Virus record (IMG/VR): IMGVR_UViG_3300028831_000290
Span: 1 to 39,729 of that record
Length of the DNA: 39,729 bases
Reading direction: 5' to 3' (one strand)
DNA from: a virus
The notes under the pieces are model-generated. The model was not told the DNA's origin. It saw only the letters and a program-made list of their open reading frames with translations, and ran no database searches. This document shows, piece by piece, positions 4,578 to 39,729 of the stretch. Both the position numbers and the translations under genes were made by a program. Numbering within the stretch: the stretch's first letter is position 1; every line of letters begins with the position of its first letter.

Positions 4578-4606
4578 ACTGTACACTAGAGTGCAGTAGG
4601 ACGCAA
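4578..4606 (-). promoter_or_regulatory. Sigma-70-type promoter TTGCGT-17-TACAGT driving the terminal Cys-rich mini-operon
   Basis: On the minus strand the -35 is the reverse complement of 4601..4606 and the -10 is the reverse complement of 4578..4583. It sits in the 62-nt gap between the GT2 stop and ATG 4546, within a 25-nt motif shared with 8594..8618. Confidence 0.5.
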
Positions 4607-5241: not shown

Positions 5242-5393
5242 CAGCTCTTCACCGTTCCCCAGCCGTTGCAGCGGTTGCACGTCTCCCACTGCGTGCCGCC
5301 CTGACACACTTTGCAGCCCTTGCCGTTGCACGTTCGGCATGTGATGGTGAAGCCGCCCGCTCCGCAGCAGACCGGACACGTGACGTCAGCCAT
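5241..5393 (-). CDS. DnaJ-type zinc-finger mini-protein with four CXXC(X)GXG-like repeats (50 aa)
   Basis: Not in the ORF track. ATG 5393 shares its A with the upstream TAA (TAATG). Sequence MADVTCPVCCGAGGFTITCRTCNGKGCKVCQGGTQWETCNRCNGWGTVKS. Its TGA overlaps the next ATG. Confidence 0.75.
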   Translation of the reverse strand: MADVTCPVCCGAGGFTITCRTCNGKGCKVCQGGTQWETCNRCNGWGTVKS

Positions 5394-6106
5394 TACCAGC
5401 CCCTTTCGGTTGTGATCTTACTGAACAGTTCGAGGTTTGCACCCCGCAGGTCCCGATTGGACGGAACGAACAGCTCGCGCAGCGGCAGCCCGCTCGGACC
5501 CATCGAACCGCCCGGCACGCTGTGGTGCAGCCGGGACAGGAACTCGGTGTCCTCGTAGCCCCAGCCGGCGAAGCGTTCGTCCATCCCGCCAGCGGCCACC
5601 CATGCGGCGCGGGTGATGGCGAGCACGCCGGGGCATGGCGCGGAGTGTCGGTGCCAGTTCGCGCTGTCTTCAAACAGGTTACCGCCTCCGTTACCTACAA
5701 ACGGATTATTGATGATCAGGTGCGTCGCCGCTTCGCTGGCGTAGAGCACGTGGTCGTGCAGCCGCACCCACGGGTGGCGCTTGATCTGCTCGGTGGCCCA
5801 GCGCACGACGGCCGGGTCCGGCACGTGGTCGGCGCCGAACATCAGGAAAACGTAGCCGTGAGCGTGCTGGGCCGCGTCGTTGAGTGCACGGGACACGCTG
5901 AACGGTCGCGGCTCGACGCAGTTGTGAATCTCGCGCATCTCGCAGTGCGGCACGAACAGCGGGTCCACGCCCACGATCACCTCGTCAACGAGGCCCGTCA
6001 CGCGCAGCTGATCCCAGCGCCGGGCGTTGTAGCGCCACACCTTCGCCCGTTGTTTGCCGGCCGGGCTGTCGTCGGCGCCGAACGGCACCAGAACACTGAT
6101 CTTCAT
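5393..6106 (-). CDS. GT-A fold glycosyltransferase, GT2/galactosyltransferase-like (237 aa)
   Basis: ATG 6106 (MKISVLVPFG) overlaps the methyltransferase stop (ATGA) and follows GGAGAG. Contains GWGYEDTEF, which resembles the GWGGEDDD motif of the Glyco_transf_7C type. Confidence 0.7.
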   Translation of the reverse strand: MKISVLVPFGADDSPAGKQRAKVWRYNARRWDQLRVTGLVDEVIVGVDPLFVPHCEMREIHNCVEPRPFSVSRALNDAAQHAHGYVFLMFGADHVPDPAVVRWATEQIKRHPWVRLHDHVLYASEAATHLIINNPFVGNGGGNLFEDSANWHRHSAPCPGVLAITRAAWVAAGGMDERFAGWGYEDTEFLSRLHHSVPGGSMGPSGLPLRELFVPSNRDLRGANLELFSKITTERGW

Positions 6107-6831
6107 GCGGCACTCTCCAGTCCTAAGTAGAGCATGGCCTGACGGCCGAGGTACTCGCCATACGCGGGCGGGATGCACTCGCGGACCCCATCGCGGTTCA
6201 TCCATCCCACGCCGAGATCTTCACGGGCGAGCGCGACACCGTGAAAGTTGCCGATGTACTGCCGCAGCTCGCCGTCCCGGAACGGGCGGCCCATCTTCGT
6301 CTTCGGCATGTCGGTGTGGTCTTCACGGCCGAGCGGCCCCACGGGGTGCAGCGGGGGTTCGACGGGAAAGTTCATTTCGAAGTAGCGGTGCCGGTCCGTC
6401 TTCAGGCCGAACATCAGCCCGCACAGCCGCACGTCCGGGCGGAGGTTGCCCCTCCGCACTGCGCCCCCCACGTTCTCAATCCAGTACGGCAAGCCGCTCG
6501 CCTCGACAAGCTCGCGGAATGGGCCGATCAGCTGCGGGTGATCCCTGCCCTGGATCACCTGCGCATCACTGTCGGCCTGGCACGGTGGTGAACCGACGGC
6601 GAGCGCGGGCCGGTACTGGGCGATGAGCCCAGGCAGCATCTCCAGCACGTCGCCCTCTATCGACTCGAAAGGGTATCGGGCCCGGTGTCGTGGATCCTGC
6701 TCGATCCCGATCACTCGGAAGCCAGCGCGGACTAAGCCCGCGGATGCTCCGCCTTGGCAGCAGAACGCGTCGATCGCCACCGGCCGCCGGAGGTATGCGG
6801 GTGTGCCCACTAAGGGGTGCCAGACCTTCAT
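6103..6831 (-). CDS. DNA (cytosine-5) methyltransferase (242 aa)
   Basis: Motif I FCCQGGASAG, motif IV GSPPCQ and motif VI WIENV. ATG 6831 shares its A with the upstream TGA. Confidence 0.85.
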   Translation of the reverse strand: MKVWHPLVGTPAYLRRPVAIDAFCCQGGASAGLVRAGFRVIGIEQDPRHRARYPFESIEGDVLEMLPGLIAQYRPALAVGSPPCQADSDAQVIQGRDHPQLIGPFRELVEASGLPYWIENVGGAVRRGNLRPDVRLCGLMFGLKTDRHRYFEMNFPVEPPLHPVGPLGREDHTDMPKTKMGRPFRDGELRQYIGNFHGVALAREDLGVGWMNRDGVRECIPPAYGEYLGRQAMLYLGLESAA

Positions 6832-7863: not shown

Positions 7864-8366
7864 CAGAGCTCACCGAACAGCTGGTAAATCCGTTCCCGGC
7901 CGACGAACGGCGACGGGTCGGTCCGGCGGTGGCGGCCGCGGGTCGGCGCGGGAGTCATCGGCATCGCGGTGCCGTGCGGCGGGGTGAGCGGGTTGTACTC
8001 GTGGGTGAACAGCGTCGGCTCGCCGACCTCGCCACGGTCCACAAGGGGTTGCATGGCCTCGTGCCGGGCGGTGGCGATCGCCGTCTCGACCTCGTCCGGC
8101 CAGCGCATCGGCGTGGCGAACGTCTCGGTGACGGCTTCGCGGATCGACTCGACGCGCCGGGCGCGGAAGTAACGCCGCAGGCCGATCTCTTCCAGCGAGG
8201 TGAAGACCAGGCTGCCGCAGACGACCGCGCCGATCCAGGTGGCCGCGGCCTCCCAGGGCGAGGTGAGGTCGGGCAGCCGGAGCACGACGTAGCCGGCGAG
8301 GATGGTCATCCCGGCCACCACGCGCAGGGTAAGGATGCTGTCGGGGGCGTTGGATCGGCGGGTCAT
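7863..8366 (-). CDS. Membrane protein with 2 N-terminal TM segments and a cytoplasmic domain (167 aa)
   Basis: ATG 8366 overlaps the upstream TGA. TM segments VVAGMTILAGYVVL and ATWIGAVVCGSLVFTSL. Confidence 0.7.
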   Translation of the reverse strand: MTRRSNAPDSILTLRVVAGMTILAGYVVLRLPDLTSPWEAAATWIGAVVCGSLVFTSLEEIGLRRYFRARRVESIREAVTETFATPMRWPDEVETAIATARHEAMQPLVDRGEVGEPTLFTHEYNPLTPPHGTAMPMTPAPTRGRHRRTDPSPFVGRERIYQLFGEL

Positions 8367-8596: not shown

Positions 8597-8625
8597 ACTG
8601 TACACCAGTGTGCAGCAGCTGTCTA
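8597..8625 (-). promoter_or_regulatory. Sigma-70-type promoter TAGACA-17-TACAGT
   Basis: On the minus strand the -35 is the reverse complement of 8620..8625 (it overlaps the upstream stop codon) and the -10 is the reverse complement of 8597..8602. It shares a 25-nt motif with 4575..4599. Confidence 0.5.
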
Positions 8626-9420: not shown

Positions 9421-11328
9421 CTACTTGCCTTCCTGTTCGATCTGCCTGGTGCGGATGCTCGCGGCCTGCTCCAGCCGTGGCGGCCAGCCGATGCCGGCCT
9501 TGTTGACGGCGTCATCCCAGATCGCCGCGAGGTCGTCGAACGACGTGGCCGCCACGATGCGCTCGACGAAGGTGTCCTCCGGCGTCTTCACCGGTGCGGC
9601 CACGGGGGCAGCTGAGGGCCGGAACGGGTTGGCCTCGAACTGCTGCGCAGACGCCTGTTCGAGGTGCTCCAGAGCATTGCCTCGCTCCCCACCCATGGCG
9701 GGCTCGGGATCCGGCGGTACCGGGCCGGGCGCGTTGGTGACGACCGGGCTGAACGACTCGGGTTCGTCGCCGTACTCCCGTGCCACCGCGCCCGCCAGCT
9801 GTGTTTCGCTCATCACCCCCGGCTGGTTCGGCAGCAGCGTCGCACGCAGCGAAGGCCACGCGGGGTGCGCGACGATGTCCTTGGCGAGGTTTGCCCGGGT
9901 GCGGCTGAGATTGGTCAGGCCGACCCGACGCCCGACATCCTGTATCGCCGCCTTCGTCTTGAACGCTTCCAGCAGCGCATCCGCATCGAGCTCGGCAGCT
10001 GTTCGGCCGCCCGTGGCCCGTGCTTCCTGTGGGGTGGTGGGCTCGACGCGCTCGCCCTTGCTGTCCAGCGCGATGACCTTCTGGTCCTTGGACGACCAGG
10101 CCGGGTGGGTGCCCGCGTGCGGCGGCTGGACGGCGTTGCCGGTGCCGATCGCCGGGCCCGTGCCCAGCACGGCCTTCGCGGTGGCGCTCATACCCGCCGA
10201 GGTGTTCGCGTCCGGGCGGTCGGCCGGCTCGACGGGCTGCTGCTGGCCGGGCGCCTGCTGCTCGAACCACGCCTGGTTCTCCGGCAGCGATGAGACTGGC
10301 CGCACGCTGTTCGTCGCCGTGCTGATTCCGGCGCCTGGTTCTGCGGGTGCGGTGCGGCCAGTCACCAGCTCGGCTGTCATCTCCGGGCTCACCGGCAAGA
10401 TCTGCTCGGCACGGGCGACGGACATGGACACAATCCTGATGGGCTCGACGGCGGCCGCGGCGAGTGCCTTGTCCGACGGCGGAAACTCGGGGTGGTAGGG
10501 CGCGATGAGGTCCTTGCGGTTGCGCCACCGCCGGACCTTCGCGGCCAGCAGCGCGCCGTACCAGCCGGCGTGGATGTCGACCTCGTAGACGTGCGCGGCC
10601 GCGGTCTGCTCGTCGCCGACCGTGATGTCCACGACGATCGCGATGGTCTTGTCGACGTCAGGCATGGGCACGCGGTGCTGCGCGCCGGACTTGTCGAACT
10701 CGATCATCGTGTCGGCGTTGGCGTAGACGGCCAGCTGCACGGCGGGGGCGTGCGGGTACTCGACGACGCGGCCCGTCTTGCGGTCGCCGATCACCAGGCG
10801 CCCGTCCGCCAGCCGGAACACCGCGTCGAACTTGCCGGCGGTGCCGATCTGCTGGTTGACGCAGGTGCCTTCGGTCAGGACCTCGGTGATACCGAGCCGG
10901 TCGAGCTCCGCGCGGTAGCGCTCATACGTCACCCGCAGCTCAACGGCCTGGGCGGCGTACTCGTCGTCGGTCATGTCCGGCACGCGCTCGTGGAACTCGT
11001 GGAAGGCCGAGCCCCAATCGCGCTTCTCGTCGCCGCCGGACTTGACCTCGGCCTGCTCGATGATCTCGCGCCACACCCGCTTCTCGTCGAGCGGCGTAAC
11101 GGCGGCGCGGGCGGTCAGCGCGGGGCTCATGGCCACACCCTTCGCTGCCTTGCGCTGACCCCAGATCGCGAGGCCCCGGCCGTCGTCGAGCGTCTTGGCC
11201 AGGGTGGTCGCCCGGGTGTACGCCTGCTGTCCGGTGCCGTCGGCGTCGAGCAGGTAGCGCCCGTGGCGGTCGTAGCCCTGCGGATCGGGAGGCGGCGCCT
11301 CGGTGCCGAAGAACTCGCTGCTGTCCAT
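9421..11328 (-). CDS. PD-(D/E)XK (RecB/Cas4/YqaJ-like) exonuclease with a ~330-aa C-terminal extension (635 aa)
   Basis: I chose ATG 11328, preceded by GAGAGG. Motifs GKFDAV...VIGDRKTG and QLAVYA (QxxxY). The C-terminal half is low-complexity and unrecognised. Confidence 0.75.
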   Translation of the reverse strand: MDSSEFFGTEAPPPDPQGYDRHGRYLLDADGTGQQAYTRATTLAKTLDDGRGLAIWGQRKAAKGVAMSPALTARAAVTPLDEKRVWREIIEQAEVKSGGDEKRDWGSAFHEFHERVPDMTDDEYAAQAVELRVTYERYRAELDRLGITEVLTEGTCVNQQIGTAGKFDAVFRLADGRLVIGDRKTGRVVEYPHAPAVQLAVYANADTMIEFDKSGAQHRVPMPDVDKTIAIVVDITVGDEQTAAAHVYEVDIHAGWYGALLAAKVRRWRNRKDLIAPYHPEFPPSDKALAAAAVEPIRIVSMSVARAEQILPVSPEMTAELVTGRTAPAEPGAGISTATNSVRPVSSLPENQAWFEQQAPGQQQPVEPADRPDANTSAGMSATAKAVLGTGPAIGTGNAVQPPHAGTHPAWSSKDQKVIALDSKGERVEPTTPQEARATGGRTAAELDADALLEAFKTKAAIQDVGRRVGLTNLSRTRANLAKDIVAHPAWPSLRATLLPNQPGVMSETQLAGAVAREYGDEPESFSPVVTNAPGPVPPDPEPAMGGERGNALEHLEQASAQQFEANPFRPSAAPVAAPVKTPEDTFVERIVAATSFDDLAAIWDDAVNKAGIGWPPRLEQAASIRTRQIEQEGK

Positions 11329-11356: not shown

Positions 11357-12964
11357 TTATGTCCACGACTGTACAGCATCGAGCACCCGGGACGCCAGCC
11401 GGATCTGCACCGCGTCGAACAGCTGGCCCGCCGTCATCCCGCGGACGTGGTGTGCCCCGGCGATGGACGCGCGTTTCCGTTGCAGCACGGTCGGGGTGCG
11501 GCGGCGGATGACCGGCGCCGGGATCTCCTGGCGGTTCGGCAGCATGGCGAACGCAGCCTCGTGCGTCAGCCCGACGCTCACCCACCGCGGCGGCCGGCCG
11601 TCCAGTGGCCAGCTGCCGACCGACCACCACGGATGCGGGTGGCGGTCCGGGCCGATGACGAACCAGATCTCCTGCTCGGTCAGCGAGCTGAACGGGATGC
11701 CGCCGTCGGTGAGCAGGTACGGCCGGTCCGACTTAATCAGCTCGACGTCTTCGAACCCGGCCACCCGCGCGCGCAGGCCGGCGTCCGGGTCGACCTCCGC
11801 CGGCTCATCGAGTTCGTCGTCTTCCCGATCGTCGTCTTCGTCGTCTTCCCGATCGTCGTCTTCGTCGCGCTCGGGCCGCTCGCTTGAGGTCATGTCGATG
11901 GTGCCATTCAGCGAGTGCCGGAACAGCACGCCGGTGGGATCCAGGATGATTGCGTCCGTCTTGCCGGGGTCGGGGCGCAGCAGCCGGCCGACCATCTGAA
12001 TGAACAGCCCCTCGTGCACGGTGGGCCGGGCGATCACCCCAGCTGAGCACCACGGCGCATCCCAGCCTTCCGACAGCCGGGTGCACGACACCAGCAGCTG
12101 GACGTCGCCGCGGCGGTGCTGCTTGTGCAGCAGCTTCGAGTCCTCGCGTGAAGTCACGCCGTACAGGCCGCCGGTCGTGATGCCCGCGGCCTCGAACCCC
12201 TCGCGGAAGTACTGGCCCGTGTCGACCGTCGGCGCGAAGCACACACCGGACCGATCGCGGGCGTACTCCAGGTAGCCGGCCACGATGGCATCCCGCACCG
12301 ACTCCCGGGATAGCTTCTCCCCCAGGTCAGCCGCATTGTAGTCGCCCGCCGTCTTGCGCACGCCGTCGAGCTGGATATCGGTGCGGATGTACTTGCCGAC
12401 GGGCCGGACGAGGAACCCCTGCTCGATGGCCCACTCGATCGAGAGCTGAAAGCTGATCTTCTGCCACACGGTGTCCAGGCCGCGGCTGTCCGCGCGTACC
12501 CAGGTGGCGGAGAACCCCGCGCACCGGACCTCGGTCCCCTCGTTCATCGCCCCCAGTCCATTGAGGACAGTCAACCACTGGTCGCTGACCGACCGGTGCG
12601 CCTCATCGCAGATGATCAGCCCGAAGCGGCCGAGCTGCGCCAGCCGCCGGGGCCGGCACGCAGTTTGCACGCTGGCCACCACGATGCGCGCGCCGGCGCT
12701 GTTCTCGCTCGCCTTGACGATCCCGATGCTCACCGAGTTGTCGATGCGCACCAGCTTGTCCACGGTCTGCCGGACCAGCTCATCGCGGTGCACGAGGATG
12801 AGCACGCGGGCGCCGCGCCGGACATGACGGTGAGCGAGGTGGCTCATGATCACGGTCTTGCCAGTGCCGGTCGCCGCGCTCACCCCGCACCGGCGGAGCC
12901 CGGATTCCCAGTCGTGCTCCAGCGCGGCAAGTGCGTCTTCCTGGTACGGCCGGAGCTCGATCAT
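11357..12964 (-). CDS. SF2 DEAH-box helicase (535 aa)
   Basis: Motifs ATGTGKT (Walker A), LIICDEAH (DEAH) and FSATW (motif III). An acidic repeat linker is followed by a C-terminal domain of about 130 aa. Confidence 0.85.
   Translation of the reverse strand: MIELRPYQEDALAALEHDWESGLRRCGVSAATGTGKTVIMSHLAHRHVRRGARVLILVHRDELVRQTVDKLVRIDNSVSIGIVKASENSAGARIVVASVQTACRPRRLAQLGRFGLIICDEAHRSVSDQWLTVLNGLGAMNEGTEVRCAGFSATWVRADSRGLDTVWQKISFQLSIEWAIEQGFLVRPVGKYIRTDIQLDGVRKTAGDYNAADLGEKLSRESVRDAIVAGYLEYARDRSGVCFAPTVDTGQYFREGFEAAGITTGGLYGVTSREDSKLLHKQHRRGDVQLLVSCTRLSEGWDAPWCSAGVIARPTVHEGLFIQMVGRLLRPDPGKTDAIILDPTGVLFRHSLNGTIDMTSSERPERDEDDDREDDEDDDREDDELDEPAEVDPDAGLRARVAGFEDVELIKSDRPYLLTDGGIPFSSLTEQEIWFVIGPDRHPHPWWSVGSWPLDGRPPRWVSVGLTHEAAFAMLPNRQEIPAPVIRRRTPTVLQRKRASIAGAHHVRGMTAGQLFDAVQIRLASRVLDAVQSWT
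11813..11860. repeat. 24-bp tandem duplication (x2 plus a partial copy) inside the helicase gene
   Basis: TTCGTCGTCTTCCCGATCGTCGTC occurs twice back to back. On the minus strand it encodes DDDREDDE DDDREDDE. Confidence 0.9.
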
Positions 12965-13161
12965 CGCACCTTGCCGTCACTAAATCGTCCGCCGCAGGGG
13001 CCGCCGTCGGGTTGCGTCATCATGTCGATCTGGTCGAACTCTGACGTCGCGACGGTCCATCTGTGACAACGGCCGCACTGCTGCCGCGGCGCGTTGCTAC
13101 GCAGGTGAGCAGGGATGCGTGGATCTGTGCCGTCACCGTACGGAATCCATTCACCAGTCAT
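12961..13161 (-). CDS. Small Cys-containing protein, possible zinc ribbon (66 aa)
   Basis: ATGA overlaps at both ends (polymerase stop and helicase start). Contains CGRCH and a distal CGG. Confidence 0.55.
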   Translation of the reverse strand: MTGEWIPYGDGTDPRIPAHLRSNAPRQQCGRCHRWTVATSEFDQIDMMTQPDGGPCGGRFSDGKVR

Positions 13162-15140
13162 GTCAGCACCTCATCATCGTCGTCGATATCGTCCAAAGTA
13201 GACCGATCAAATTCCCTCGGTTGCTCGGCCCAGGTGATGCCGTTGATCTCGGCGGTGGCCAGCATCTCGACCCCGTGCCCGATTGGCCCGGACATTGCGA
13301 TTTCCAGGTCCCGGCACGCTTCGGCGGCCATCGCCTCCGGCACCCACAGCACGATCTCGTCGTGCATGAGCAGCGCCAGCGCCCAGCCCCACTTCTCGCG
13401 CAGGTACAGATACCATGCCGCCTTGAGCCAGTCTGCCTGCGCCCCTTGGGTTTCGTAGTTCAGCGCCTTGCGTGACGGCTTGGCGCTCGTGATGACCCGG
13501 CCGTCGTCGAGCACGATCTTCCGGTCCCACAGGATGATCTTGCGGCCGGACGGCAGGGTGACGGCTTCCTGCTGGTTCATCTTCGCGGCCCGGCCGAACA
13601 TGCCCGGGTAGTTCTGGTGCTGGTCGGACCGGAACTTGGCCGCCGCGTCCATCGAGATCTTGAACGAGGCGGCCAGCTTGCGCACCCCGACGCCGTAGCA
13701 CACCGACAGGAAGCCGATCTTGGCCATTTGCCGCAGCCGGTAAGACCTCGTCCCGGCCTTCTTTCCCTCCGCTGTAACGAACTCCGCGCCGAAGGTGTCG
13801 GTGGCCACTGCGTTGTTCACGTCGCCGGAGTGGATGGCGGCCACGTAGCGCGGGTCCCCGGACAGTCCGGCCATCGTGCGCGGCTCGCCCTGCTCCAGGT
13901 CGCACGAGACGAACAACCACCCCGGCACGCCGCCGAGCGCCGCGCGGATGCGCTTGTCGTCCTTGGGCAGCTGCTGCACCGGCGGGTTGCTGGCGGAGTT
14001 CCGGTGGGTCACCGTGCCGATGGACCGGAACTGCGGATGCAGCCGGCCGTCCCGCTCCAGGGCATCGAGCATCGGCTGCACGTAGGTCTCGCGGTACTTC
14101 GTCGCGCCCCGGCACGCGGTGATGTGGTGAGCCAGCTCGACAGCCGCCGGGTTGGTGCCAGCGTCCTTGATCTCCGCGAGTGCCCACTTGTCCCAGCTCG
14201 GCTTGCCGGTTTTCTCGCTGGTGCGCGGTGAGGTCTGGCCCAGCGCCTCGAACGCTTTGCCGATCGACTGCCCCATCGCCGACGGCGGGATGCCGTGCGG
14301 TGCCAGCCACGCTGCCTCGTCGGCCGCCACCTTGTCCAGCTCGCCGGCGATCCACCGGACGTAGGGCGGGTCCAGCGGCAGGCCGCGGAACACCATGCAG
14401 TCGTCGTCCCACTGCAAGGCGAACTCGATCTGTACGTGATCCCACTCGCCGAGATCGTGCAACCGCTTGACGGCCTGGTCGTAGAGCACCTTGACCGCGA
14501 CGGCGTCCATCGCCGAGTACTCCAGGTACTCGATCGTCCACAATGGAACGTTGGCGAACCCCCACTTGACTGCTGCCTTCGGGGTGCGCTGGCCGACCGG
14601 TGCGTGTTCCTTGAACCACGCGTGCAAGCGCTGCTCGGCCTCGGCCAGGCACGGCGAGACCTCGCGGCGGTAGGTGTCCTTGAGCCCCTTCGGATGCACG
14701 AGCCGGGGATCGATGCCGTCCTTGCGGGGCAGCAGCGTGCGTGGGTCCAGGATCGCCTGCGCCACCTGGTAATCGATGACGTGCGGATCCAGCTCACCGA
14801 GCCGGATGGTGCCCGGCAGGTACCGCTCGATGAATGGGATCTCAGCCAGCCCGGTGAAGTGGCCGACGAAGCGCGGGTGCTCTCGCATGATGGTCCGGAT
14901 GAGGTTCTGGGCTTCGGTGCGCTGCGGATCGAGCAGCCACGCCACTTCGCCGTCGCTGATCTGGATCAACCGACACGCGTACCCCGGTGCCCACGGGTCG
15001 ACCGTGTTCGTCTCGCTGTCCAAGCCCAGCACCTCACCGGTGTTCTGGTGCATCCACCGCGCGAACGCCAGCCAGTCGCCGGAGTCCTGCGGGAAGTAGC
15101 ACACCACCTCGTGCGGCGCCCGGATGGTGAAGGTGATCAT
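13158..15140 (-). CDS. Family A DNA polymerase with a 3'-5' exonuclease domain (660 aa)
   Basis: ExoI motif LGLDSET, motif A FVSCDLEQGEPR, motif B RQMAKIGFLSVCYGVG and motif C LMHDEIV. Confidence 0.9.
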   Translation of the reverse strand: MITFTIRAPHEVVCYFPQDSGDWLAFARWMHQNTGEVLGLDSETNTVDPWAPGYACRLIQISDGEVAWLLDPQRTEAQNLIRTIMREHPRFVGHFTGLAEIPFIERYLPGTIRLGELDPHVIDYQVAQAILDPRTLLPRKDGIDPRLVHPKGLKDTYRREVSPCLAEAEQRLHAWFKEHAPVGQRTPKAAVKWGFANVPLWTIEYLEYSAMDAVAVKVLYDQAVKRLHDLGEWDHVQIEFALQWDDDCMVFRGLPLDPPYVRWIAGELDKVAADEAAWLAPHGIPPSAMGQSIGKAFEALGQTSPRTSEKTGKPSWDKWALAEIKDAGTNPAAVELAHHITACRGATKYRETYVQPMLDALERDGRLHPQFRSIGTVTHRNSASNPPVQQLPKDDKRIRAALGGVPGWLFVSCDLEQGEPRTMAGLSGDPRYVAAIHSGDVNNAVATDTFGAEFVTAEGKKAGTRSYRLRQMAKIGFLSVCYGVGVRKLAASFKISMDAAAKFRSDQHQNYPGMFGRAAKMNQQEAVTLPSGRKIILWDRKIVLDDGRVITSAKPSRKALNYETQGAQADWLKAAWYLYLREKWGWALALLMHDEIVLWVPEAMAAEACRDLEIAMSGPIGHGVEMLATAEINGITWAEQPREFDRSTLDDIDDDDEVLT

Positions 15141-15674: not shown

Positions 15675-15704
15675 GTGACGGGGGTACGTGCAGTACTGTA
15701 CACT
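15675..15704 (+). promoter_or_regulatory. Rightward early promoter GTGACG-18-TACACT
   Basis: -35 at 15675..15680 and -10 at 15699..15704, in the 80-nt divergent intergenic region. The first + gene ATG is at 15738. Confidence 0.5.
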
Positions 15705-17893: not shown

Positions 17894-17944
17894 ATGCCGA
17901 ACATACCAGACCCGTTGATCCCCGACTACGGGCTGCCCGCATGA
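17894..17944 (+). CDS. Upstream mini-ORF (16 aa) coupled to the prim-pol gene
   Basis: AGAGAGG lies 7 nt before ATG 17894. Sequence MPNIPDPLIPDYGLPA. TGA 17942..17944 overlaps the prim-pol ATG 17941 (ATGA). Confidence 0.3.
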   Translation: MPNIPDPLIPDYGLPA

Positions 17945-19839
17945 GCGCGGCGCTGGACGACCACACACAGTACCGGCTCGCCCTGCGCGCGTCGGCACTG
18001 GCGTACGTGGCCAAGGGCTGGGCCGTGGTGCCGTTGTCGCGGATGGCCTACGACGAGCAGGGACGCAAGCAGGTACGCCGGCTCATCCGCTGGCAGCGCG
18101 ACCCTGCGCAGCTGGTGCGCACCCCGGAACAGGTCGAGCGCTGGTTCGGGCTGACCGGCCAGGCTGAGGGGCTGGCCATCGCGACCGGGCCGTCCGGGCT
18201 GATGGCCGTGGACGTCGACTCGCACAAGGCGTCCTACGGCGGCGCCGAACCTCCGCCCGGTGGCTGGCGCGAGCACCACGCCGGCCGCGGCGGCATCCAC
18301 GTCTACTACGCCAACCCCGACGGCCAGCGCAACACCGCGGGCGCGCTCGGCACAGCGGTTGACACCCGCGGCGACGGCGGGCTGATGTACGCCGCCCCGA
18401 CGAGGTGCTATCACGCCGACGGCCGCGTGACGCAGTGGCAAACCGAACGGCCGTTATCCGAGCTGCCGGCGCCCGGCGAGCTGCCGGCCGGGCCCGCAGT
18501 CGCCGACCGGCGCCGGGAGTACCGGCCGGTGGCTGCGGTCGCCGAGCCGACAGTCAAGCCGCGGGATGAGGCGTACGGCATCGTCGAGGTCAAGCGGGCG
18601 GCGTGGCTGGCCAGCGTCGAGGGCACCCGGCACGCCACGCTGATGGACTTCGGCGGCACCCTGGCGCGCGTGCTGCTCGCCGACGGGCTCGCGCCGCACG
18701 AGGTATACGCCCAGCTCGATGCCGAGGTGGCCGCGCACCCGGACGCCGCGGAGTTCGAGACCGCGGAGAAGGACGTCCAGGACTGCGTGCGCTACGCCAC
18801 GGCCAACCCCTGGGTGTTCGGTGTGCCGGAAGGGCTGGAAGGCAGGTTCGCCATCCCGGACCCCGGCGAAGCCCCCGCACCCGCGGACGTCGGTGACGGG
18901 GGCGAGCTGTTCGCTGGCGGCGACCCGGACTTCTACGACAACCCTGCGCCGCCTCCCATGCCCGTCTACGGCAGCTTCGGCGGCAAGCTGCCGCTGTTCT
19001 ACGACTCGGGGGTGCACTGGCTGCAGGGGGAGAGCGAGAGCGGCAAGAGCTGGGTGGCGTTCGCCGTCGCGCTTGAGGTCGTGCGCGAGACCGGCGGGTG
19101 GGTGCTCATCGTCGATCACGAGGACACCCGCGGCAGCGTGCTGCGCCGGCTCAAGGCGCTGGGGATGACCCGGAAGGAGTACGCGCGGGTCGTGTACGTG
19201 TCCGGGCCGGACATCACGCATGCCGAGCTGCGTGCTCACCTGGCGGCTACCGGGCGGGACTACGCGGCGATGGTCGTCGACGGCGTCACCTCGGCCCTGA
19301 ACGCCGCCGGGCTGTCCGGCCGGGACGAGCAGGAGACGACACGGTGGGTGGACCAGCTGCCGCGGCAGGCCCGGATGTCGATCTGTGTGGATCACGTCGT
19401 CAAGGCCGTCGACGACCGGCAAGGGATGGCCATCGGCACGCAGGCCAAGAAATCGGTGGTGACCGGGTCCGGGTGGGAGGTGGTGTGCACCTCGGCGTTC
19501 GGGCGGGGCCGGGATGGACGTATCGAGCTGCGTCCGCAGAAGGACAAGGGCGGGTTCCTGCGCGGTGAGCTGGGTCGCTCAGCGGTCCGGCTGGACGTGC
19601 GCACAGCGCCCGATGGTGAGCGGGTGCGGCTCGAAGCCGGCGATGGAGGCGGGTTCTTCGCCGACCCGAACGAGGCACTGTTCGCCGCGCTGCTGGCCGA
19701 CGGTGCCGACGGCGGCATTGGAGTGAACGAGTTGTTCCGCGAGGCCAAGCAACGGGGCGCGGGCTACTCGACCAACCGCAAAGCGAGTATGCACAAAGCG
19801 TGGCTGACTTATTACGTAGAGCAGTCCGCGGTCACATAG
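17941..19839 (+). CDS. Bifunctional primase-polymerase fused to a RecA/DnaB-like ATPase (632 aa)
   Basis: N-terminal AKGWAVVPL and MAVDVDSH (DxD) match the prim-pol type. C-terminal Walker A GESESGKSW and Walker B VLIVDHED. Confidence 0.8.
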   Translation: MSAALDDHTQYRLALRASALAYVAKGWAVVPLSRMAYDEQGRKQVRRLIRWQRDPAQLVRTPEQVERWFGLTGQAEGLAIATGPSGLMAVDVDSHKASYGGAEPPPGGWREHHAGRGGIHVYYANPDGQRNTAGALGTAVDTRGDGGLMYAAPTRCYHADGRVTQWQTERPLSELPAPGELPAGPAVADRRREYRPVAAVAEPTVKPRDEAYGIVEVKRAAWLASVEGTRHATLMDFGGTLARVLLADGLAPHEVYAQLDAEVAAHPDAAEFETAEKDVQDCVRYATANPWVFGVPEGLEGRFAIPDPGEAPAPADVGDGGELFAGGDPDFYDNPAPPPMPVYGSFGGKLPLFYDSGVHWLQGESESGKSWVAFAVALEVVRETGGWVLIVDHEDTRGSVLRRLKALGMTRKEYARVVYVSGPDITHAELRAHLAATGRDYAAMVVDGVTSALNAAGLSGRDEQETTRWVDQLPRQARMSICVDHVVKAVDDRQGMAIGTQAKKSVVTGSGWEVVCTSAFGRGRDGRIELRPQKDKGGFLRGELGRSAVRLDVRTAPDGERVRLEAGDGGGFFADPNEALFAALLADGADGGIGVNELFREAKQRGAGYSTNRKASMHKAWLTYYVEQSAVT

Positions 19840-19852
19840 AGTGGAGCATCGA

Positions 19853-20062
19853 GTGGTCTTCCGTAACGAGACCACCAGTAGGCTGTCTACTGGTGGTCTC
19901 GGAGTGGTCTCCGCCGGTCTTCAAGATCACTTATACGCTGTTTGACCTGCGGCGATACCGGTCTCGGCGATCGAGACCACTTGAGACCAGGGGACCCCAG
20001 GCCGGGTGGTCTCCCAGCCCTCCCCCGAAGGGGGTGGGAGACCAAGCCGGTCCCGAGACCAC
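19853..20062. repeat. Cluster of 11 GAGACCAC / GTGGTCTC motif copies in both orientations: candidate ori iterons or cos/pac terminase-binding sites
   Basis: Full 8-mers at 19868, 19893, 19904, 19973, 20006 and 20055. Near copies at 19853, 19914, 19959, 19983 and 20038. The region has no credible ORF. Confidence 0.7.
19867..19901 (+). terminator. Perfect 15-bp hairpin built from two inverted motif copies: possible terminator of the early-right block
   Basis: CGAGACCACCAGTAG - GCTGT - CTACTGGTGGTCTCG, 28 nt after the prim-pol stop. No T-tract. Confidence 0.4.
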
Positions 20063-20107
20063 CAAGCGCTGATTAGCTAAGCCTCACCTCACCGACGTAA
20101 GCCGGGC

Positions 20108-20137
20108 TGGCCGGGAGGCCGGGCACTCGTGTACAGT
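20108..20137 (+). promoter_or_regulatory. Candidate late promoter TGGCCG-18-TACAGT (TGTACAGT)
   Basis: -10 at 20132..20137 is preceded by TG. It lies 150 nt upstream of the terS ATG. The core TGTACAGTCGTsGACA is shared with the minus-strand site at 11368. The -35 is weak. Confidence 0.4.
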
Positions 20138-20289
20138 CGTCGACACCGGCCGGGCCTGATCGAGGGGCACGCCGCGGCGCGAACCGATGCGGGAAGGCAG
20201 ATGGCCATCCGGACCCGTGAGAGGACACGCCCGGTCGGCCAAGATCATTAGGTTCGACCCATTCAGCCCCATGCACCCAGGGAGGTCCG

Positions 20290-20862
20290 ATGGCCCGCCG
20301 GCTGAACAAGCGCGAACTGGCCGAGCGCCGCCGTCAGGGCTGGGACCTGTACGTGGCCGGCTGGACGCAGCGCGAGATCGCCGAGCACTTCGGTATCGAC
20401 CAGTCCACGGTGTCCGACGACTTCGCCGCGCTGCGGGCGGAGACACCTCGGCAGACCCGTGAGCAGCTGATCGAGAAGCACCAGGCCAGCCTGGCGTGGG
20501 CCACCCGGCGGCTGCGTGAGCTGGCCGAGAAGCCCGCCCCGCCGGTCACCGCGGGCCAGCTCGGCGCCGTGGTGCGCGACCCGCTGACCGGTGAGATCGT
20601 CCGGGACTACGGGCTCCAGCGGCAGGCCGCGCTTGACCTCGTCCGGCTCCAGGAGCGCGAGGCCAAGCTGCTCGGCCTGAACGCCGCCGACGTCGTCGAG
20701 GTGTCCGGCAGCCTGACCGTCATCGAGGGCAGCGTGGACGCCGAGGTGGCCCGGCTTGCCGCTCAGCTCGGCATGCAGGACCCTGCCGCTTTGCCGTCTG
20801 GTTGTGCTCAGGACGAGAGTTCAGAGGGTGTCCGGGGTTCGGATGCCGACGCCACCGCCTAA
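20290..20862 (+). CDS. Terminase small subunit with an N-terminal HTH (190 aa)
   Basis: GGGAGG precedes ATG 20290. HTH segment WTQREIAEHFGIDQSTVSDDF. Immediately upstream of the large subunit. Confidence 0.7.
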   Translation: MARRLNKRELAERRRQGWDLYVAGWTQREIAEHFGIDQSTVSDDFAALRAETPRQTREQLIEKHQASLAWATRRLRELAEKPAPPVTAGQLGAVVRDPLTGEIVRDYGLQRQAALDLVRLQEREAKLLGLNAADVVEVSGSLTVIEGSVDAEVARLAAQLGMQDPAALPSGCAQDESSEGVRGSDADATA

Positions 20863-27916: not shown

Positions 27917-28071
27917 ACGAGGAGCTGACGCGGTACCTCGCTGCCGCTGTGATCAAGGCGGGCGGTGAGGTACGACTCACGCACGAAGATCGAATTCAGG
28001 CGTTCGACTTGACACTCAAGGTCGACGACGAGACTGATGACCTGATCATCAGTGCCGAGGTGGCCGAGTGA
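27913..28071 (+). CDS. Hypothetical small acidic protein, AT-richer (52 aa)
   Basis: ATGA overlap upstream and GTGA overlap downstream. Confidence 0.5.
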   Translation: MNEELTRYLAAAVIKAGGEVRLTHEDRIQAFDLTLKVDDETDDLIISAEVAE

Positions 28072-29129
28072 GCGCCGTTGTCTACGCGCCCTACATCGAC
28101 CCGAGCACCTTCTACCGGCTGCTTGAGCCGGCCCGGGTGACGAACACGCCGGTCGTCGAGCACCTGCCGAACGTCGGCGCGGCGGAGACGGTGGTGCTGA
28201 ACCGGCCGCTGGATGCCGGCATCGCCGAGCAGGTCCGGCTGTGGCGCGCCGAGGGGCGCCGGGTGGTCGTGGACCTCGACGACGACTTCGACGCCGTCGT
28301 GCCGGAGCACCGTATCCACGGCCGGTACACCACCGAGTTCCTGCACCAGGCATGCTACTGGGCGTCGGCGGTGACCTGCTCGACGCCCGCGCTCGCCGAA
28401 CGGTACGGCTACGGCCACGGCGAGGTGCTGCGGAACTGCATCCCGGAAAGCTACCTGTCGGTAACCCGACGATCCCGGGTGCCTGGGTACATCGAGCTAG
28501 GTGGTGTGCTGGATAACAGCGTCGGGACGTGGGTCGGCTGGTATGGCTCGCTCGGCAGCCACCCGCGTGACCCGGCTGCCGCCGGGCGCGGCGTGGGCGA
28601 CGCGCTCAACCCGCACCCCGACGTCGAGTTCGTGTTCGCCGGGCCGGGCAAGGACGCGCCGCAGCTCGCCGAGTTGTTCGGCCTGCAGCGCCCGGTGCGC
28701 GAGCTGGGGTTTTTCTCGATGCTCGGCCTCATCCAGATCATTAGCGAGTTCGATATCGGCATCGTGCCGCTGGAGATCAACCCGTTCAACGAGGCGAAGT
28801 CCTACCTCAAGGGGCTGGAGTTCGCCGCGGTGGGCGTGCCGGTCATCGCCAGCCCGACGCCGGAGTACATCCGGATGGCGGCGCAGGGCGGCTGTGTGAC
28901 GGCGGCCAGGCGCGACGATTGGTGGCTGTGGCTGCGTGAGCTCATCAGGCAGCCTGAGATACGGGCTGAGCACGCTGCGCGCGGCCGGGCATGGGCCGCC
29001 GAGCAGACCTACGAGAAGCACGCTGGTCTCTGGCGTGCGGTTTGGTACGCTGATGGACAAGCCAGTGCGGACAACGGGGCTGATGCGACCACCGCCGGGC
29101 GACGTGTGACGACCGACCACGCCCCCTGA
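28068..29129 (+). CDS. GT-B fold glycosyltransferase, GT4/GT1-like (353 aa), inside the head module
   Basis: C-terminal signature NEAKSYLKGLEFAAVGVPVIAS resembles the E-x7-E region (..EA.a.G.PV.as) of retaining GT-B enzymes. G/C-rich third positions. Confidence 0.65.
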   Translation: MSAVVYAPYIDPSTFYRLLEPARVTNTPVVEHLPNVGAAETVVLNRPLDAGIAEQVRLWRAEGRRVVVDLDDDFDAVVPEHRIHGRYTTEFLHQACYWASAVTCSTPALAERYGYGHGEVLRNCIPESYLSVTRRSRVPGYIELGGVLDNSVGTWVGWYGSLGSHPRDPAAAGRGVGDALNPHPDVEFVFAGPGKDAPQLAELFGLQRPVRELGFFSMLGLIQIISEFDIGIVPLEINPFNEAKSYLKGLEFAAVGVPVIASPTPEYIRMAAQGGCVTAARRDDWWLWLRELIRQPEIRAEHAARGRAWAAEQTYEKHAGLWRAVWYADGQASADNGADATTAGRRVTTDHAP

Positions 29130-37713: not shown

Positions 37714-38594
37714 TGCCCACAGCGATCACGACCATCACGCATCAGCTGGGCCCGCTGCTGCTGAACGCGGTGGACGACCTCGGGAACCGGTGGGGGGTGG
37801 TCGATATCGAGGACGGGTACTCCACACCGCCGGTGAAGCAGCGCTCCGGCAAACGCCCGTACGGGCACGGCTCGTTCCGGGCCCGGTCGTTCTGGGATGA
37901 GAGGCGGCTCACCATCACCGGGTGGGCGGAGTGCGCCTCGGGGTTCGCCGCGGAGGTCGCGAGCGACTACCTCAAGAGCATTTTCATCACCGGCGATCAG
38001 GTCACCTACACCAAGAAGATGCGCCAGGGGTCCCGGTTCATCAACGTCGAGCTCGCCGACGCAATGCGGGTTCGGGTCGAGTCCGGCGCGTGCATGCTGA
38101 CCTACCAGATCCCGCTGAAGGCGACCGACCCGCGGTACCTGGACAGCGTGCTGCAGACCGTGTCCGCAGCCGTATCGGCGCCGTCGACCTCCGGCCTGGA
38201 CTGGGTGACGGGCGGTGGCCTGGACTGGGTGACGGGCGGTGGCCTGAACTGGGGCACGTCCACCAGCACCGGACTGCTGTCGGTGACCAACAACGCGGGC
38301 ACGGCCGACGCCTACCCGCTCGTGTCGATCGCGGGCTCAGTGATCAATCCGTCCATTTCGGACCCGGTCACCGGGCGCATGGTCTCCTACAACGGCCAGA
38401 TCTCCACGGGCCAGACGCTCGTGATCGACATGTCCCCATTCACCCGCAGCGTCACCGTCAACGGTGTCGATCGCTCCGCCGCGCTGTCGTCCGCCCAATG
38501 GGTCACCGTACCGCCCGGTGCTACCCGCTCGCTCCAGTACGGCGGTTCCGGAATCGGCCAGGCAACCGTCACCATGCGGTCTGCGTACCTGTAG
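37713..38594 (+). CDS. Distal tail protein (Dit-like) minor tail protein (293 aa)
   Basis: ATG 37713 shares its A with the tape measure TAA. It is the first gene after the tape measure. Confidence 0.6.
   Translation: MPTAITTITHQLGPLLLNAVDDLGNRWGVVDIEDGYSTPPVKQRSGKRPYGHGSFRARSFWDERRLTITGWAECASGFAAEVASDYLKSIFITGDQVTYTKKMRQGSRFINVELADAMRVRVESGACMLTYQIPLKATDPRYLDSVLQTVSAAVSAPSTSGLDWVTGGGLDWVTGGGLNWGTSTSTGLLSVTNNAGTADAYPLVSIAGSVINPSISDPVTGRMVSYNGQISTGQTLVIDMSPFTRSVTVNGVDRSAALSSAQWVTVPPGATRSLQYGGSGIGQATVTMRSAYL
38193..38254. repeat. 24-bp tandem repeat (2 exact copies plus 1 diverged partial copy) inside the Dit-like gene
   Basis: GGCCTGGACTGGGTGACGGGCGGT occurs twice, then GGCCTGAACTGGGG. It encodes GLDWVTGG GLDWVTGG GLNWG. 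Confidence 0.9.
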
Positions 38595-38603
38595 GAGAAA
38601 CCT

Positions 38604-39729
38604 ATGCCCACCAACGCAAACGCCGCCGGTGTCTGGACAGCACAGTCCAAGAATAACGCCAAGTTCGGCCGCCAGCTCATGCAAATGCTGTTCGAGAACA
38701 ACGACGGCACACCTCTGAATGGCACCCGATCCGGCGTGGTCGCCACGACCGGACTCACGCTGATGTCCGATCTGCTCGTGTACAACGTCGTCGGGCTCAG
38801 CATGGACGTCGCGCCCGGATGGGGCCTCGCCCACCGTGCCGGTCAAGGTCCGTACCCGGGCTGCCTGGACGCTGTCGTGACGGTGACATGCGATCCGGCG
38901 CCGGCGTCGAACCCGCGTAACGACCTGGTGATCATGCGGATGTACGATGCCGCACTCGGCGACACTCCGCCAGGCGGGCAGCCGTGCCGTATCGAGATCA
39001 TCACCGGCACACCGGCCGCGTCGCCGCTGGACCCGATGACGCCCAACGCACTCGGTGTGCTCACCGGGTTCACCGACGGCGCCGGTGGTGTCGGCATCCC
39101 GCTGGCCCGTGCCCGGGTGTCGACGACCGGCGTGATCACCCTGACTCCGATCCGCCGGGCGGCCAGCCTCGTCGGTGGTCCGCGCGTGCTCCTCGAAGGT
39201 GACGTCGACAACGGCGGACGGGTGGGTCACTTCCGGTACAACGCGAGTACTGATGTGCTGGAAATCAAACGCAGTGACGGCAGCTGGTACCCCATCCCGA
39301 CGGGCACGTCCGGGATTGTCGGATCGATGGTCGGCGACTCGGGATTGATCACAACGGACGCACCGAGCGCGTGGGCTAGCGGCACCAAAGTGCTGTCCAA
39401 TGTGGTCACCAGCTTTTCGGCGGTATCGGGTGGCAAATACGAGGTCGTCGCCGACGTCAACTGGACCTGTGCGACGGCGTCCAACCAGGACGCGCTGGGT
39501 ATCGTGTGGCGATCGGGTGCCGGCCTGGTGGCCACGGACGCGCTCGCCGGCTACAAGGGCCCGCGCACGCACCCGGACGGCACGGGCTACAACACCATCA
39601 CCCTGTACGGCACGTTCACCGCAGTGAGTACCGGCACCCACAACGTCGGCGTGATCGGCTGGAAGCCCACTGGCAACACCGGGTCCTCGCAGATTCGGGC
39701 CAACGCGTCCGGCTGGGCGGCCAACCGTA
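38604..39729 (+). CDS. Minor tail protein, 5' part (full length 382 aa after wrapping to 142..164)
   Basis: GGAGAAACC precedes ATG 38604. The frame is open to the window end and is absent from the ORF track because there is no in-window stop. Confidence 0.8.
   Translation, partial: MPTNANAAGVWTAQSKNNAKFGRQLMQMLFENNDGTPLNGTRSGVVATTGLTLMSDLLVYNVVGLSMDVAPGWGLAHRAGQGPYPGCLDAVVTVTCDPAPASNPRNDLVIMRMYDAALGDTPPGGQPCRIEIITGTPAASPLDPMTPNALGVLTGFTDGAGGVGIPLARARVSTTGVITLTPIRRAASLVGGPRVLLEGDVDNGGRVGHFRYNASTDVLEIKRSDGSWYPIPTGTSGIVGSMVGDSGLITTDAPSAWASGTKVLSNVVTSFSAVSGGKYEVVADVNWTCATASNQDALGIVWRSGAGLVATDALAGYKGPRTHPDGTGYNTITLYGTFTAVSTGTHNVGVIGWKPTGNTGSSQIRANASGWAANR
39589..39729. repeat. Terminal direct repeat copy 2, identical to 1..141
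   Basis: 141/141 identity checked by eye. Confidence 0.95.

Follow-up and report, generated by a model that had tools for sequence, protein, structure and literature searches.

The 39,729-nt virus contig IMGVR_UViG_3300028831_000290 (IMG/VR, positions 1 to 39,729; about 68% G+C), called the window below and analysed over its whole length, carries an array of short repeats in the 450-nt gap between the stop codon of a primase-helicase gene and the start of terS, the probable terminase small subunit gene. We consider this array (19855-20062) to be probably the phage replication origin, of the iteron type, with a probability of about 0.72. Comparable layouts have been described in other replicons. 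In phage P4, the alpha protein combines primase, helicase and a C-terminal origin-binding domain in one polypeptide, and the cognate octamers occur in both orientations. Its primase is of the DnaG/Toprim type and its helicase belongs to superfamily 3 (SF3); in P4, ori and crr form two loci separated by about 4.5 kb, neither of them directly at the stop codon of the gene. The iteron origins of plasmids (RepA, pi, TrfA) and of lambda (O/ori-lambda) present phased iterons beside an AT-rich unwinding element, and in the lambdoid O/ori pairs the initiator specificity differs between related replicons. These initiators are neither helicases nor primases and recruit host DnaB and DnaG; the lambda ori is located inside the O gene. 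The R sites of lambda cosB, read by gpNu1 (TerS), are also short sites in both orientations. They lie upstream of the small terminase gene, and their specificity covaries with that of the helix-turn-helix protein between lambda and phage 21.

The origins of Staphylococcus aureus pathogenicity islands (SaPI) include 6-12 iterons located immediately downstream of rep and split around an AT-rich region; these are read by the C-terminal domain of Rep, a self-loading helicase (PMC9371898). The pRN1 origin is found just downstream of a prim-pol/helicase gene, and its authors mention similar arrangements in some bacteriophages (PMC4234260).

Comparison of the locus with described origins

The SaPI Rep/PriRep proteins and their ori offer a similar layout, with ori directly 3' of the initiator gene and sites facing each other around an AT-rich centre, as in the window. 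Their iterons of 5-6 nt are matched to the C-terminal domain in an island-specific manner, similar to what is described below, and in SaPI5 primase and helicase are fused, as they are here (PMC9371898). However, SaPI Rep is an AAA+ helicase with a pre-sensor II insert and a winged-helix C-terminal domain, whereas the NTPase of the window protein is not of this family but matches Pfam AAA_25 (RecA-like) and its C-terminal domain is an unclassified three-helix bundle. Moreover, SaPI are satellites while the window is a complete tailed phage of about 40 kb with its own DNA polymerase (PolA) and a G+C content of about 68%. The similarity with P4 alpha and its ori lies in the one-polypeptide initiator and the repeats in both orientations; no sequence relationship was detected, and the SF3 helicase plus winged-helix combination of P4 alpha/D5-type proteins is not found (no SF3/D5 Pfam match). 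The window resembles plasmid and lambda iteron origins in its phased iterons and unwinding element, but its proposed initiator is a primase-helicase. With respect to lambda cosB, the covarying protein is here the primase-helicase and not TerS.

The pRN1 protein ORF904 (prim-pol, SF3 helicase and winged helix) has an essential cis element directly 3' of the fusion gene, as in the window (PMC4234260). That element is a 100-nt stem-loop without iterons used with an SF3 helicase, whereas the window has an iteron array whose first inverted repeat is not kept as a stem. As an origin, the array would work like those of SaPI and P4 and is not related to them by descent; the helicase superfamily differs and the reading domain is unclassified. 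The general view of phage origins is unchanged, since this layout repeats the design of SaPI, P4 and iteron replicons.

A dense hexamer array behind the primase-helicase gene

The elements of the array and the gene preceding it are the following.

17941..19839, + strand: primase-helicase of 632 amino acids (aa), proposed replication initiator, with Pfam Prim-Pol and AAA_25 domains
19654..19836, + strand: C-terminal 61 aa of the primase-helicase, proposed iteron-reading domain, predicted three-helix domain
19855..19860, + strand: site S0, GGTCTT, near copy of the GGTCTC core; homologous sites are exact in relatives L014, L032, L017 and L013
19868..19873, - strand: site S1, GAGACC, left arm of the 15-bp inverted repeat
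19867-19881 / 19887-19901: perfect 15-bp inverted repeat S1/S2 with a 5-nt loop
19895..19921, + strand: left iteron set, S2 (19895-19900), S3 (19906-19911) and S4 (19916-19921, GGTCTT)
19922..19957: AT-richer core between the two site sets, proposed unwinding element, sequence CAAGATCACTTATACGCTGTTTGACCTGCGGCGATA
19960..19988: right iteron set, S5 (19960-19965, +), S6 (19973-19978, -) and S7 (19983-19988, -)
20007..20044: G/C-rich imperfect palindrome, arms 20007-20020 / 20031-20044, 93% complementary
20008-20013 (+) and 20038-20043 (-): S8 and S9, inverted sites flanking the G/C-rich palindrome
20049-20054: doubtful near copy GGTCCC
20055..20060, - strand: site S10, GAGACC, last exact copy

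The octamer GAGACCAC has six exact matches in the entire window and every one of them lies within 19868-20062; in shuffled sequence it occurs on average 2.0 times per 39.7 kb and never reaches six. The hexamer GAGACC (GGTCTC on the other strand) has 33 matches, nine of which fall within 19868-20060, including the one contained in CCGGTCTC at 19958-19965. Near copies are AAGACCAC at 19853-19860 (GGTCTT core), GAGACCAG at 19983-19990 and GAGACCAA at 20038-20045, and further near cores can be read off the sequence at 19916-19921 (GGTCTT) and 20049-20054 (GGTCCC). The array therefore totals nine exact hexamer cores and 2-3 near copies, that is 11-12 sites in about 210 bp. In a Poisson scan of all hexamers over all 210-bp windows, the GAGACC/GGTCTC cluster ranks first in the contig with a score of 12.5-12.8 (-log10 p), and the best cluster of any hexamer in the 100 Markov-1 simulations used as null scores 5.85 +/- 0.78 with a maximum of 8.9. 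Octamers with one mismatch are not enriched genome-wide (47 found, 46 expected), so that the signal is one of clustering rather than overall abundance. A cluster of short repeats well above chance, as found in iteron origins, is thus present.

The perfect inverted repeat S1/S2 (19867-19901) folds with -32.3 kcal/mol (z -6.3). In the alignment of eight gaps, its arms carry two uncompensated mismatches in 4 of the 8 genomes, suggesting that it is the paired sites that are conserved and not a base-paired stem. The left set S2-S4 is made of direct repeats at intervals of 11 and 10 bp, close to one turn of the helix, which puts neighbouring sites on the same face; the same spacing is observed in relatives L015, L030, L033 and L014. 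S6 and S7 in the right set are oriented toward the left set across the core. This core is partly conserved in relatives as ..GATCA..TGACC[AT]G..ATA (same alignment), and 19917-19946 ranks 6th among the least stable 30-mers of the contig (top 0.05%), so that an easily melted element lies between the iterons. The G/C-rich palindrome (20007-20044) folds with -39.1 kcal/mol (z -4.9), and in distant relatives the sequence of its centre differs, the palindromic arrangement around S8/S9 being retained.

These results agree with most of the original prediction, made from the letters of the window. The eleven motif copies and six exact 8-mers that it listed are accounted for by the counts above, and the genome-wide GAGACC count that it proposed as a check gives a local cluster (9 of 33) far beyond simulations. 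The perfect 15-bp hairpin at 19867..19901, the imperfect G/C-rich palindrome and the AT-richer core which it described are likewise recovered, the first as an inverted repeat with a 5-nt loop, the second at 20007-20044 and the third through the stability ranking of 19917-19946.

Other signals were searched for. The intrinsic terminator scan gave no site in 19500-20600, and neither hairpin is followed by a T-run; with the uncompensated mismatches of the first inverted repeat in 4 of 8 relatives, an intrinsic terminator (a G+C-rich hairpin followed by a T/U run) was rejected. Sigma-70 promoter and tRNA scans returned nothing, and Rfam a single sub-threshold chance match. The conserved GATCA of the core was also considered as a special signal and dropped, since the whole window has a strong excess, in gene orientation, of AAGATCA (13 occurrences against 1.2 expected) and WGATCA (75 against 19). 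The simplest explanation is the use of Lys-Ile codons (AAG-ATC) at high genomic G+C, so that little weight should be given to GATCA in the proposed origin core.

Concerted switching of the hexamer among relatives

The primase-helicase has 95 homologues in the protein database, many of them on 39-41-kb contigs. Twelve uncultured relatives of about 40 kb were chosen through these homologues, giving 13 genomes with the window. Another contig, L008, retrieved in a metagenome scan with TerL, is the same phage as L013. All relatives share a gene order, with leftward genes including those of PolA and the DEAD-box helicase, and rightward small genes followed by primase-helicase, gap, terS, terL, portal, protease, glycosyltransferase and capsid genes. 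In 12 of the 12 relatives with an orthologue the array starts at most about 50 nt after the primase-helicase stop codon.

The hexamer itself differs between genomes: GGTCTC in the window, L015 and L030; TGTCTC in L031 and L034; TGTCCC in L016; GGTCCC in L014 and L032; GGTTCC in L017 and L033; GGTACC in L013; GGGTCC in L018; and TGCCCC in L019. Each gap contains 9-13 copies of its own hexamer (5 in that of L016), compared with a few in the other 11-21 kb. Site positions are nearly the same throughout. In L015 the sites lie, relative to the stop codon, at 2-, 29+, 40+, 50+, 93+, 105-, 116-, 141+, 169- and 185-; those of L030 and L033 are within 1-2 nt of these positions (L033 shifted by 1), and the layouts of the window and L014 equal that of L015 after shifts of 27 and 45 nt. 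The left half comprises an inverted pair, three direct copies 10-11 bp apart and a core of about 40 bp, and the right half one direct and two inverted copies 10 bp apart, an inverted pair around the G/C-rich palindrome and one or two last copies. In the eight-gap alignment the scaffold aligns and the two central bases of every site vary by genome; the arm ACCACCAGTAGGCAGGCTACATGTGGT, for instance, is identical in L015 (GGTCTC) and L033 (GGTTCC). All copies have thus been switched together, as would be expected when many sites must match one sequence-specific protein.

L018 and L019 carry an extra open reading frame (ORF) of 99-114 aa between the array and the promoter-like box that precedes terS (6381-6680 in L018, 7116-7460 in L019), which indicates that the array stays with the primase-helicase gene and not with terS. 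Two more distant AAA_25 helicase genes (L035, L036) have unrelated C-termini and are each directly followed by a repeat array of their own (4795-5060 in L035, 3985-4200 in L036; repeats GGCCGCAC; TTCGGCAC[GA]C) with an AT-rich centre containing GATCA. The L036 array includes the CCCCCGAAGGGGG hairpin, and the L035 palindrome is a different sequence. These arrays suggest that the gene-plus-origin cassette is older than the phage family of the window. A probable initiator-plus-origin cassette is defined in uncultured high-G+C phages of about 40 kb.

Searches elsewhere added little to this set. Among deposited phages no close relative was found: blastn gave only short TerL matches of about 70% with Arthrobacter phages, and tblastn of the primase-helicase at most 34% identity over the NTPase domain. 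The IMG/VR scan with the primase-helicase returned nothing and that with the conserved box pattern CGTGTACAGTCNNCGNNNCC ten chance matches without a family member. TerS and TerL scans yielded contigs that end before the array (L001/L003, L004, L007) or are too distant to align. In the genome collection, the TerL scan gave nothing and the profile scan only a 29% match in an Arthrobacter genome.

The primase domain (17941-18370 in the window, aa 1-143) exists among these phages in two forms that cannot be aligned by BLASTP, one with a Pfam Prim-Pol match (window, L014, L015, L016, L018, L019) and one without a Pfam match (L013 and L017, both 10001-10360; L030; L034). The remainder of the protein is 60-68% identical across both forms. 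This looks like a domain replacement, unrelated to the iteron class.

Residues of the primase-helicase that follow the hexamer

In the primase-helicase, the Prim-Pol domain covers aa 19-177 (PF09250, 3e-21) and the AAA_25 RecA-like NTPase aa 356-488 (PF13481, 3e-9). For the C-terminal domain, AlphaFold2 models built with 19-24 homologues predict helices at aa 576-586, 595-604 and 611-631, with a pLDDT of 87.5 for the domain and above 90 over most of the helices. The residues that track the motif belong to the last 40 of the protein; they are G593-V594-N595, which begin helix 2, and S610-T611-N612-R613, which begin helix 3. Classical helix-turn-helix proteins contact bases through these N-terminal helix positions. 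In helix 3, STN goes with ..TCTC, GN with ..TCCC, GA with GGTTCC and SA with GGTACC; in helix 2, GVN goes with GGT.. and SAL/SAI with TGT... The helix-3 segment G-Y-[STN-R]-K-A is the same in the window and L015, and its variants are SAR-A in L013, GNR-L in L014, GAR-L in L017 and GNR-A in L016.

Hexamers were then predicted from these residues for further homologues, each prediction being recorded before the genome was looked up. For P0019 (STN) GGTCTC was predicted and found 9 times, for P0003 (GN..L) GGTCCC 12 times, and for P0004 (GA..L) GGTTCC 10 times. For P0012 (STN), the prediction was GGTCTC and TGTCTC was found 12 times, so that the TCTC half was right and the first base wrong. P0012 and L016, both TGT genomes, have S-A-[IL]-E-L where GGT genomes have G-V-N-E-L. 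The helix-2 rule derives from this miss and led to the prediction of TGTCTC for P0023 (SALEL and STN), which was found as predicted: the gap has 9 copies, the remaining 21.5 kb a single one. Four of the five blind predictions are therefore exact and one is half right. Two or three residues of this small unclassified domain, predicted to bind DNA, thus predict its hexamer, and the match of iterons with the replicon's own initiator that is seen in iteron origins is observed here as covariation.

A scan of about 1,240 alignment columns with at least 3 different residues, taken from the proteins conserved across genomes, was used to look for columns uniform in every multi-member motif class with at least 3 classes differing. 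Only one column, that of T611 in the primase-helicase, agrees with the motif class: T accompanies ..TCTC, N ..TCCC and A GGT[TA]CC. Linkage was also controlled for. Once the variable dinucleotides of the sites are masked, 5 of 8 genomes have their nearest scaffold neighbour in a different motif class, and with the 7 tracking residues set aside the same holds for the C-terminal domain in 9 of 11. In the tails between helix 3 and the array, L033 (GGTTCC) groups with L015 and L030 (GGTCTC), and L017 (GGTTCC) with L014 and L032 (GGTCCC). Motif class is thus matched by the residues and the sites but not by the sequence between them, which makes plain linkage unlikely. Considered together, these comparisons make it very probable that the array is what the C-terminal domain of the primase-helicase binds.

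The domain itself has no recognizable family: Pfam gave nothing at E <= 10, phmmer against all PDB chains 0 matches, NCBIfam nothing for the whole primase-helicase, and Foldseek of both C-terminal models against PDB no match with E below 0.6. Weak look-alikes in the latter search, including the ArgR and NsrR DNA-binding domains (TM 0.48-0.54), are not significant.

Alternative explanations

The origin assignment draws on a non-random cluster, a conserved place and layout, a concerted switch of the motif and its match to residues of the initiator but not of TerS. The original prediction held that an origin and a cos/pac region fit equally well. Its origin half stands and its TerS-site half does not, because the hexamer tracks the primase-helicase and not TerS across the 12 relatives. 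That the repeats are TerS-binding sites of a cos/pac region, like the R sites of lambda cosB, appears very unlikely to us, although the array is 230 bp upstream of terS, TerS has an N-terminal helix-turn-helix, and in many tailed phages the packaging site is located beside or inside terS. In TerS, the recognition helix DQSTVSDDF is paired with GGTCTC in the window and L015 and with GGTACC in L013, and DVSTISDDL with GGTCTC (L030), GGTCCC (L014, L032) and TGCCCC (L019). One helix thus pairs with different hexamers, different helices share one hexamer, and the column scan found no TerS column consistent with the motif class, so that the repeats do not covary with the TerS DNA-binding domain as cos/pac sites would. 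Furthermore, the distance of the array is fixed to the primase-helicase stop codon and not to terS (L018, L019), contigs of one phage (L008 and L013) break at different places between samples, and no long contig has an end within the gap. By these comparisons TerS is a neighbour of the array and not its reader. A packaging site is possible elsewhere in the gap (20063-20289) or inside terS. Sequence data of this kind are enough to favour an origin over a packaging site for the array in the phage family of the window. Among other candidate readers, the three XRE-like proteins are unlikely, since no gene of L016, L018, L031 and L034, all of which have the array, carries a Pfam XRE-type domain; neither they nor the HTH_17 and 160-aa proteins contain a class-consistent column. 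A partition site resembling a centromere, or a recombination site of the attP type whose arm repeats bind protein, is improbable in the extreme: clusters of short repeats in both orientations do occur in parS/parC sites and attP arms, but neither the scan of the window ORFs (most large ORFs) nor the Pfam records of the relatives gave a domain of ParA/ParB, an integrase or a recombinase, and the site class tracks the primase-helicase.

A regulatory role is unlikely as well, if less so. The array would then be an operator or roadblock between early and late operons, read by the C-terminal domain or another phage protein and without origin function. Its location between the end of the rightward early operon and the promoter-like box at 20129 would suit such a role, the two strong hairpins could act as tail-less terminators, and covariation identifies the reader of the sites rather than the effect of its binding. 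However, at least 10 sites in two phased sets with a meltable core, directly 3' of an initiator-type gene, reproduce the layout of SaPI origins. Neither hairpin has a T-run, the terminator scan found none, and the RNA stem of the first inverted repeat is not conserved (mismatched and uncompensated in 4 of 8 relatives). Initiators often autoregulate too, so that this role could coexist with origin function. Finally, the idea of a chance or compositional cluster, or of two hairpins without protein-binding meaning, can draw on the lack of genome-wide enrichment of both one-mismatch octamers and the hexamer, but its probability is close to nil. The scan score is far beyond simulations, the position of the array is conserved in 12 relatives and the motif is switched in concert; the comparative data have already refuted this explanation.

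Several observations nevertheless weigh against an origin read by the primase-helicase. The tracking codons lie only about 70-130 bp from the array, and co-inheritance could mimic covariation; the 13 genomes compared are partly related; and the helix-2 rule was made after a miss and tested on one further genome. With no significant family match for the C-terminal domain, we infer its DNA-binding role from the covariation and the predicted helices. The core is only moderately AT-rich (about 50% A+T), and several relatives have the least stable part of their gap at another place. GC skew shows no origin signal, because it follows gene orientation. Lastly, the deposited phages include no cultured relative.

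Proposed mechanism and possible specificity groups

If the array is an origin, the initiator would physically bind the phased left (S2-S4) and right (S5-S7) sets flanking the core, as well as the two outer inverted pairs S1/S2 and S8/S9. Binding, together with oligomerisation of the RecA-like AAA_25 helicase, would melt the core at about 19922-19957, where the helicase may load itself. The Prim-Pol domain would then make the first primers and the family-A DNA polymerase (13158-15140, - strand) would extend them. The later steps are proposed because they are established for SaPI Rep, P4 alpha and pRN1 ORF904.

A more tentative suggestion, which we regard as possible but would not yet favour, is that of a natural modular code in the three-helix domain. 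Positions 4-5 of the hexamer would be dictated by the first residues of helix 3 and position 1 by those of helix 2, and the repeated, concerted switching of a dozen iterons along with these residues would create replication-specificity groups among co-circulating soil phages of about 40 kb. With such groups, the origin could be closed to satellites and to co-infecting relatives. If the match between residues and hexamer is confirmed, the domain-site pairs would form a compact orthogonal set of origins and initiators for actinobacterial vectors.

A promoter-like box to the right of the array

The right edge of the proposed origin module is marked by a short box.

20129..20137, + strand: GTGTACAGT box, in which TACAGT resembles a -10 element

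The GTGTACAGT(C) box is conserved in the gaps of 11 of the 12 relatives, L032 having the variant GTGTACGCTC. Other exact copies of GTGTACAGT in the window are found at 4578-4586, 8597-8605 and 15695-15703 (all - strand), the last facing the leftward genes beyond the divergent junction. Copies in the relatives are found at the divergent early junction, ahead of genes that run leftward, and in front of the small leftward gene that lies between terS and terL; their orientation matches that of the genes downstream. L014, for example, has copies at 7923-7932 (both strands), 3430 (-), 12260 (+) and 13457 (-). At the divergent early junction of several relatives the box forms the palindrome ACTGTACAGT. 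This distribution suggests that the box is probably a promoter element or regulator site of the family, and that the copy at 20129 probably serves as promoter for the late operon of terS and terL.

In many relatives terS and terL are separated by one or two small leftward genes, several of which follow a GTACAGT box: 13092-13238 in L013, 13174-13416 in L014, 12968-13192 in L015, 12984-13483 in L017, 9377-9544 in L030 and 7228-7398 in L033 (all - strand). The window has no leftward gene between terS (end 20862) and terL (start 20878).

Flanking genes and contig

The neighbouring genes mentioned above are located as follows.

20290..20862, + strand: probable terminase small subunit (TerS-like), 190 aa, with an N-terminal helix-turn-helix
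20878-22296: TerL
13158-15140, - strand: phage family-A DNA polymerase (PolA)

The TerS assignment is based on weak Terminase_5 and phrog_57 matches and on the position directly before TerL. The gap holds only short overlapping ORFs, and the homologous gap is without a called gene in 10 of the 12 relatives having gene calls, consistent with the earlier statement that it contains no credible ORF. The ends of the contig overlap exactly over 141 nt (1-141 = 39589-39729), which identifies it as a circular assembly of about 39,588 bp and bears out the earlier remark that the physical ends cannot be read from the contig break.

Tandem repeats of 24 nt, perfect or nearly so, are present at 11813-11867 (2.3 copies) and 38193-38253 (2.5 copies). 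The former lies inside the DEAD-box helicase gene (- strand) and corresponds to the second-best hexamer cluster (GAAGAC) of the Poisson scan. A group-1 glycosyltransferase gene (28068-29129, +) is located between the prohead protease and major capsid genes and is found in nearly all relatives; a second glycosyltransferase (family 2/7C-like) is encoded on the opposite strand (5393-6205, -). These genes may point to glycosylation of the virion.

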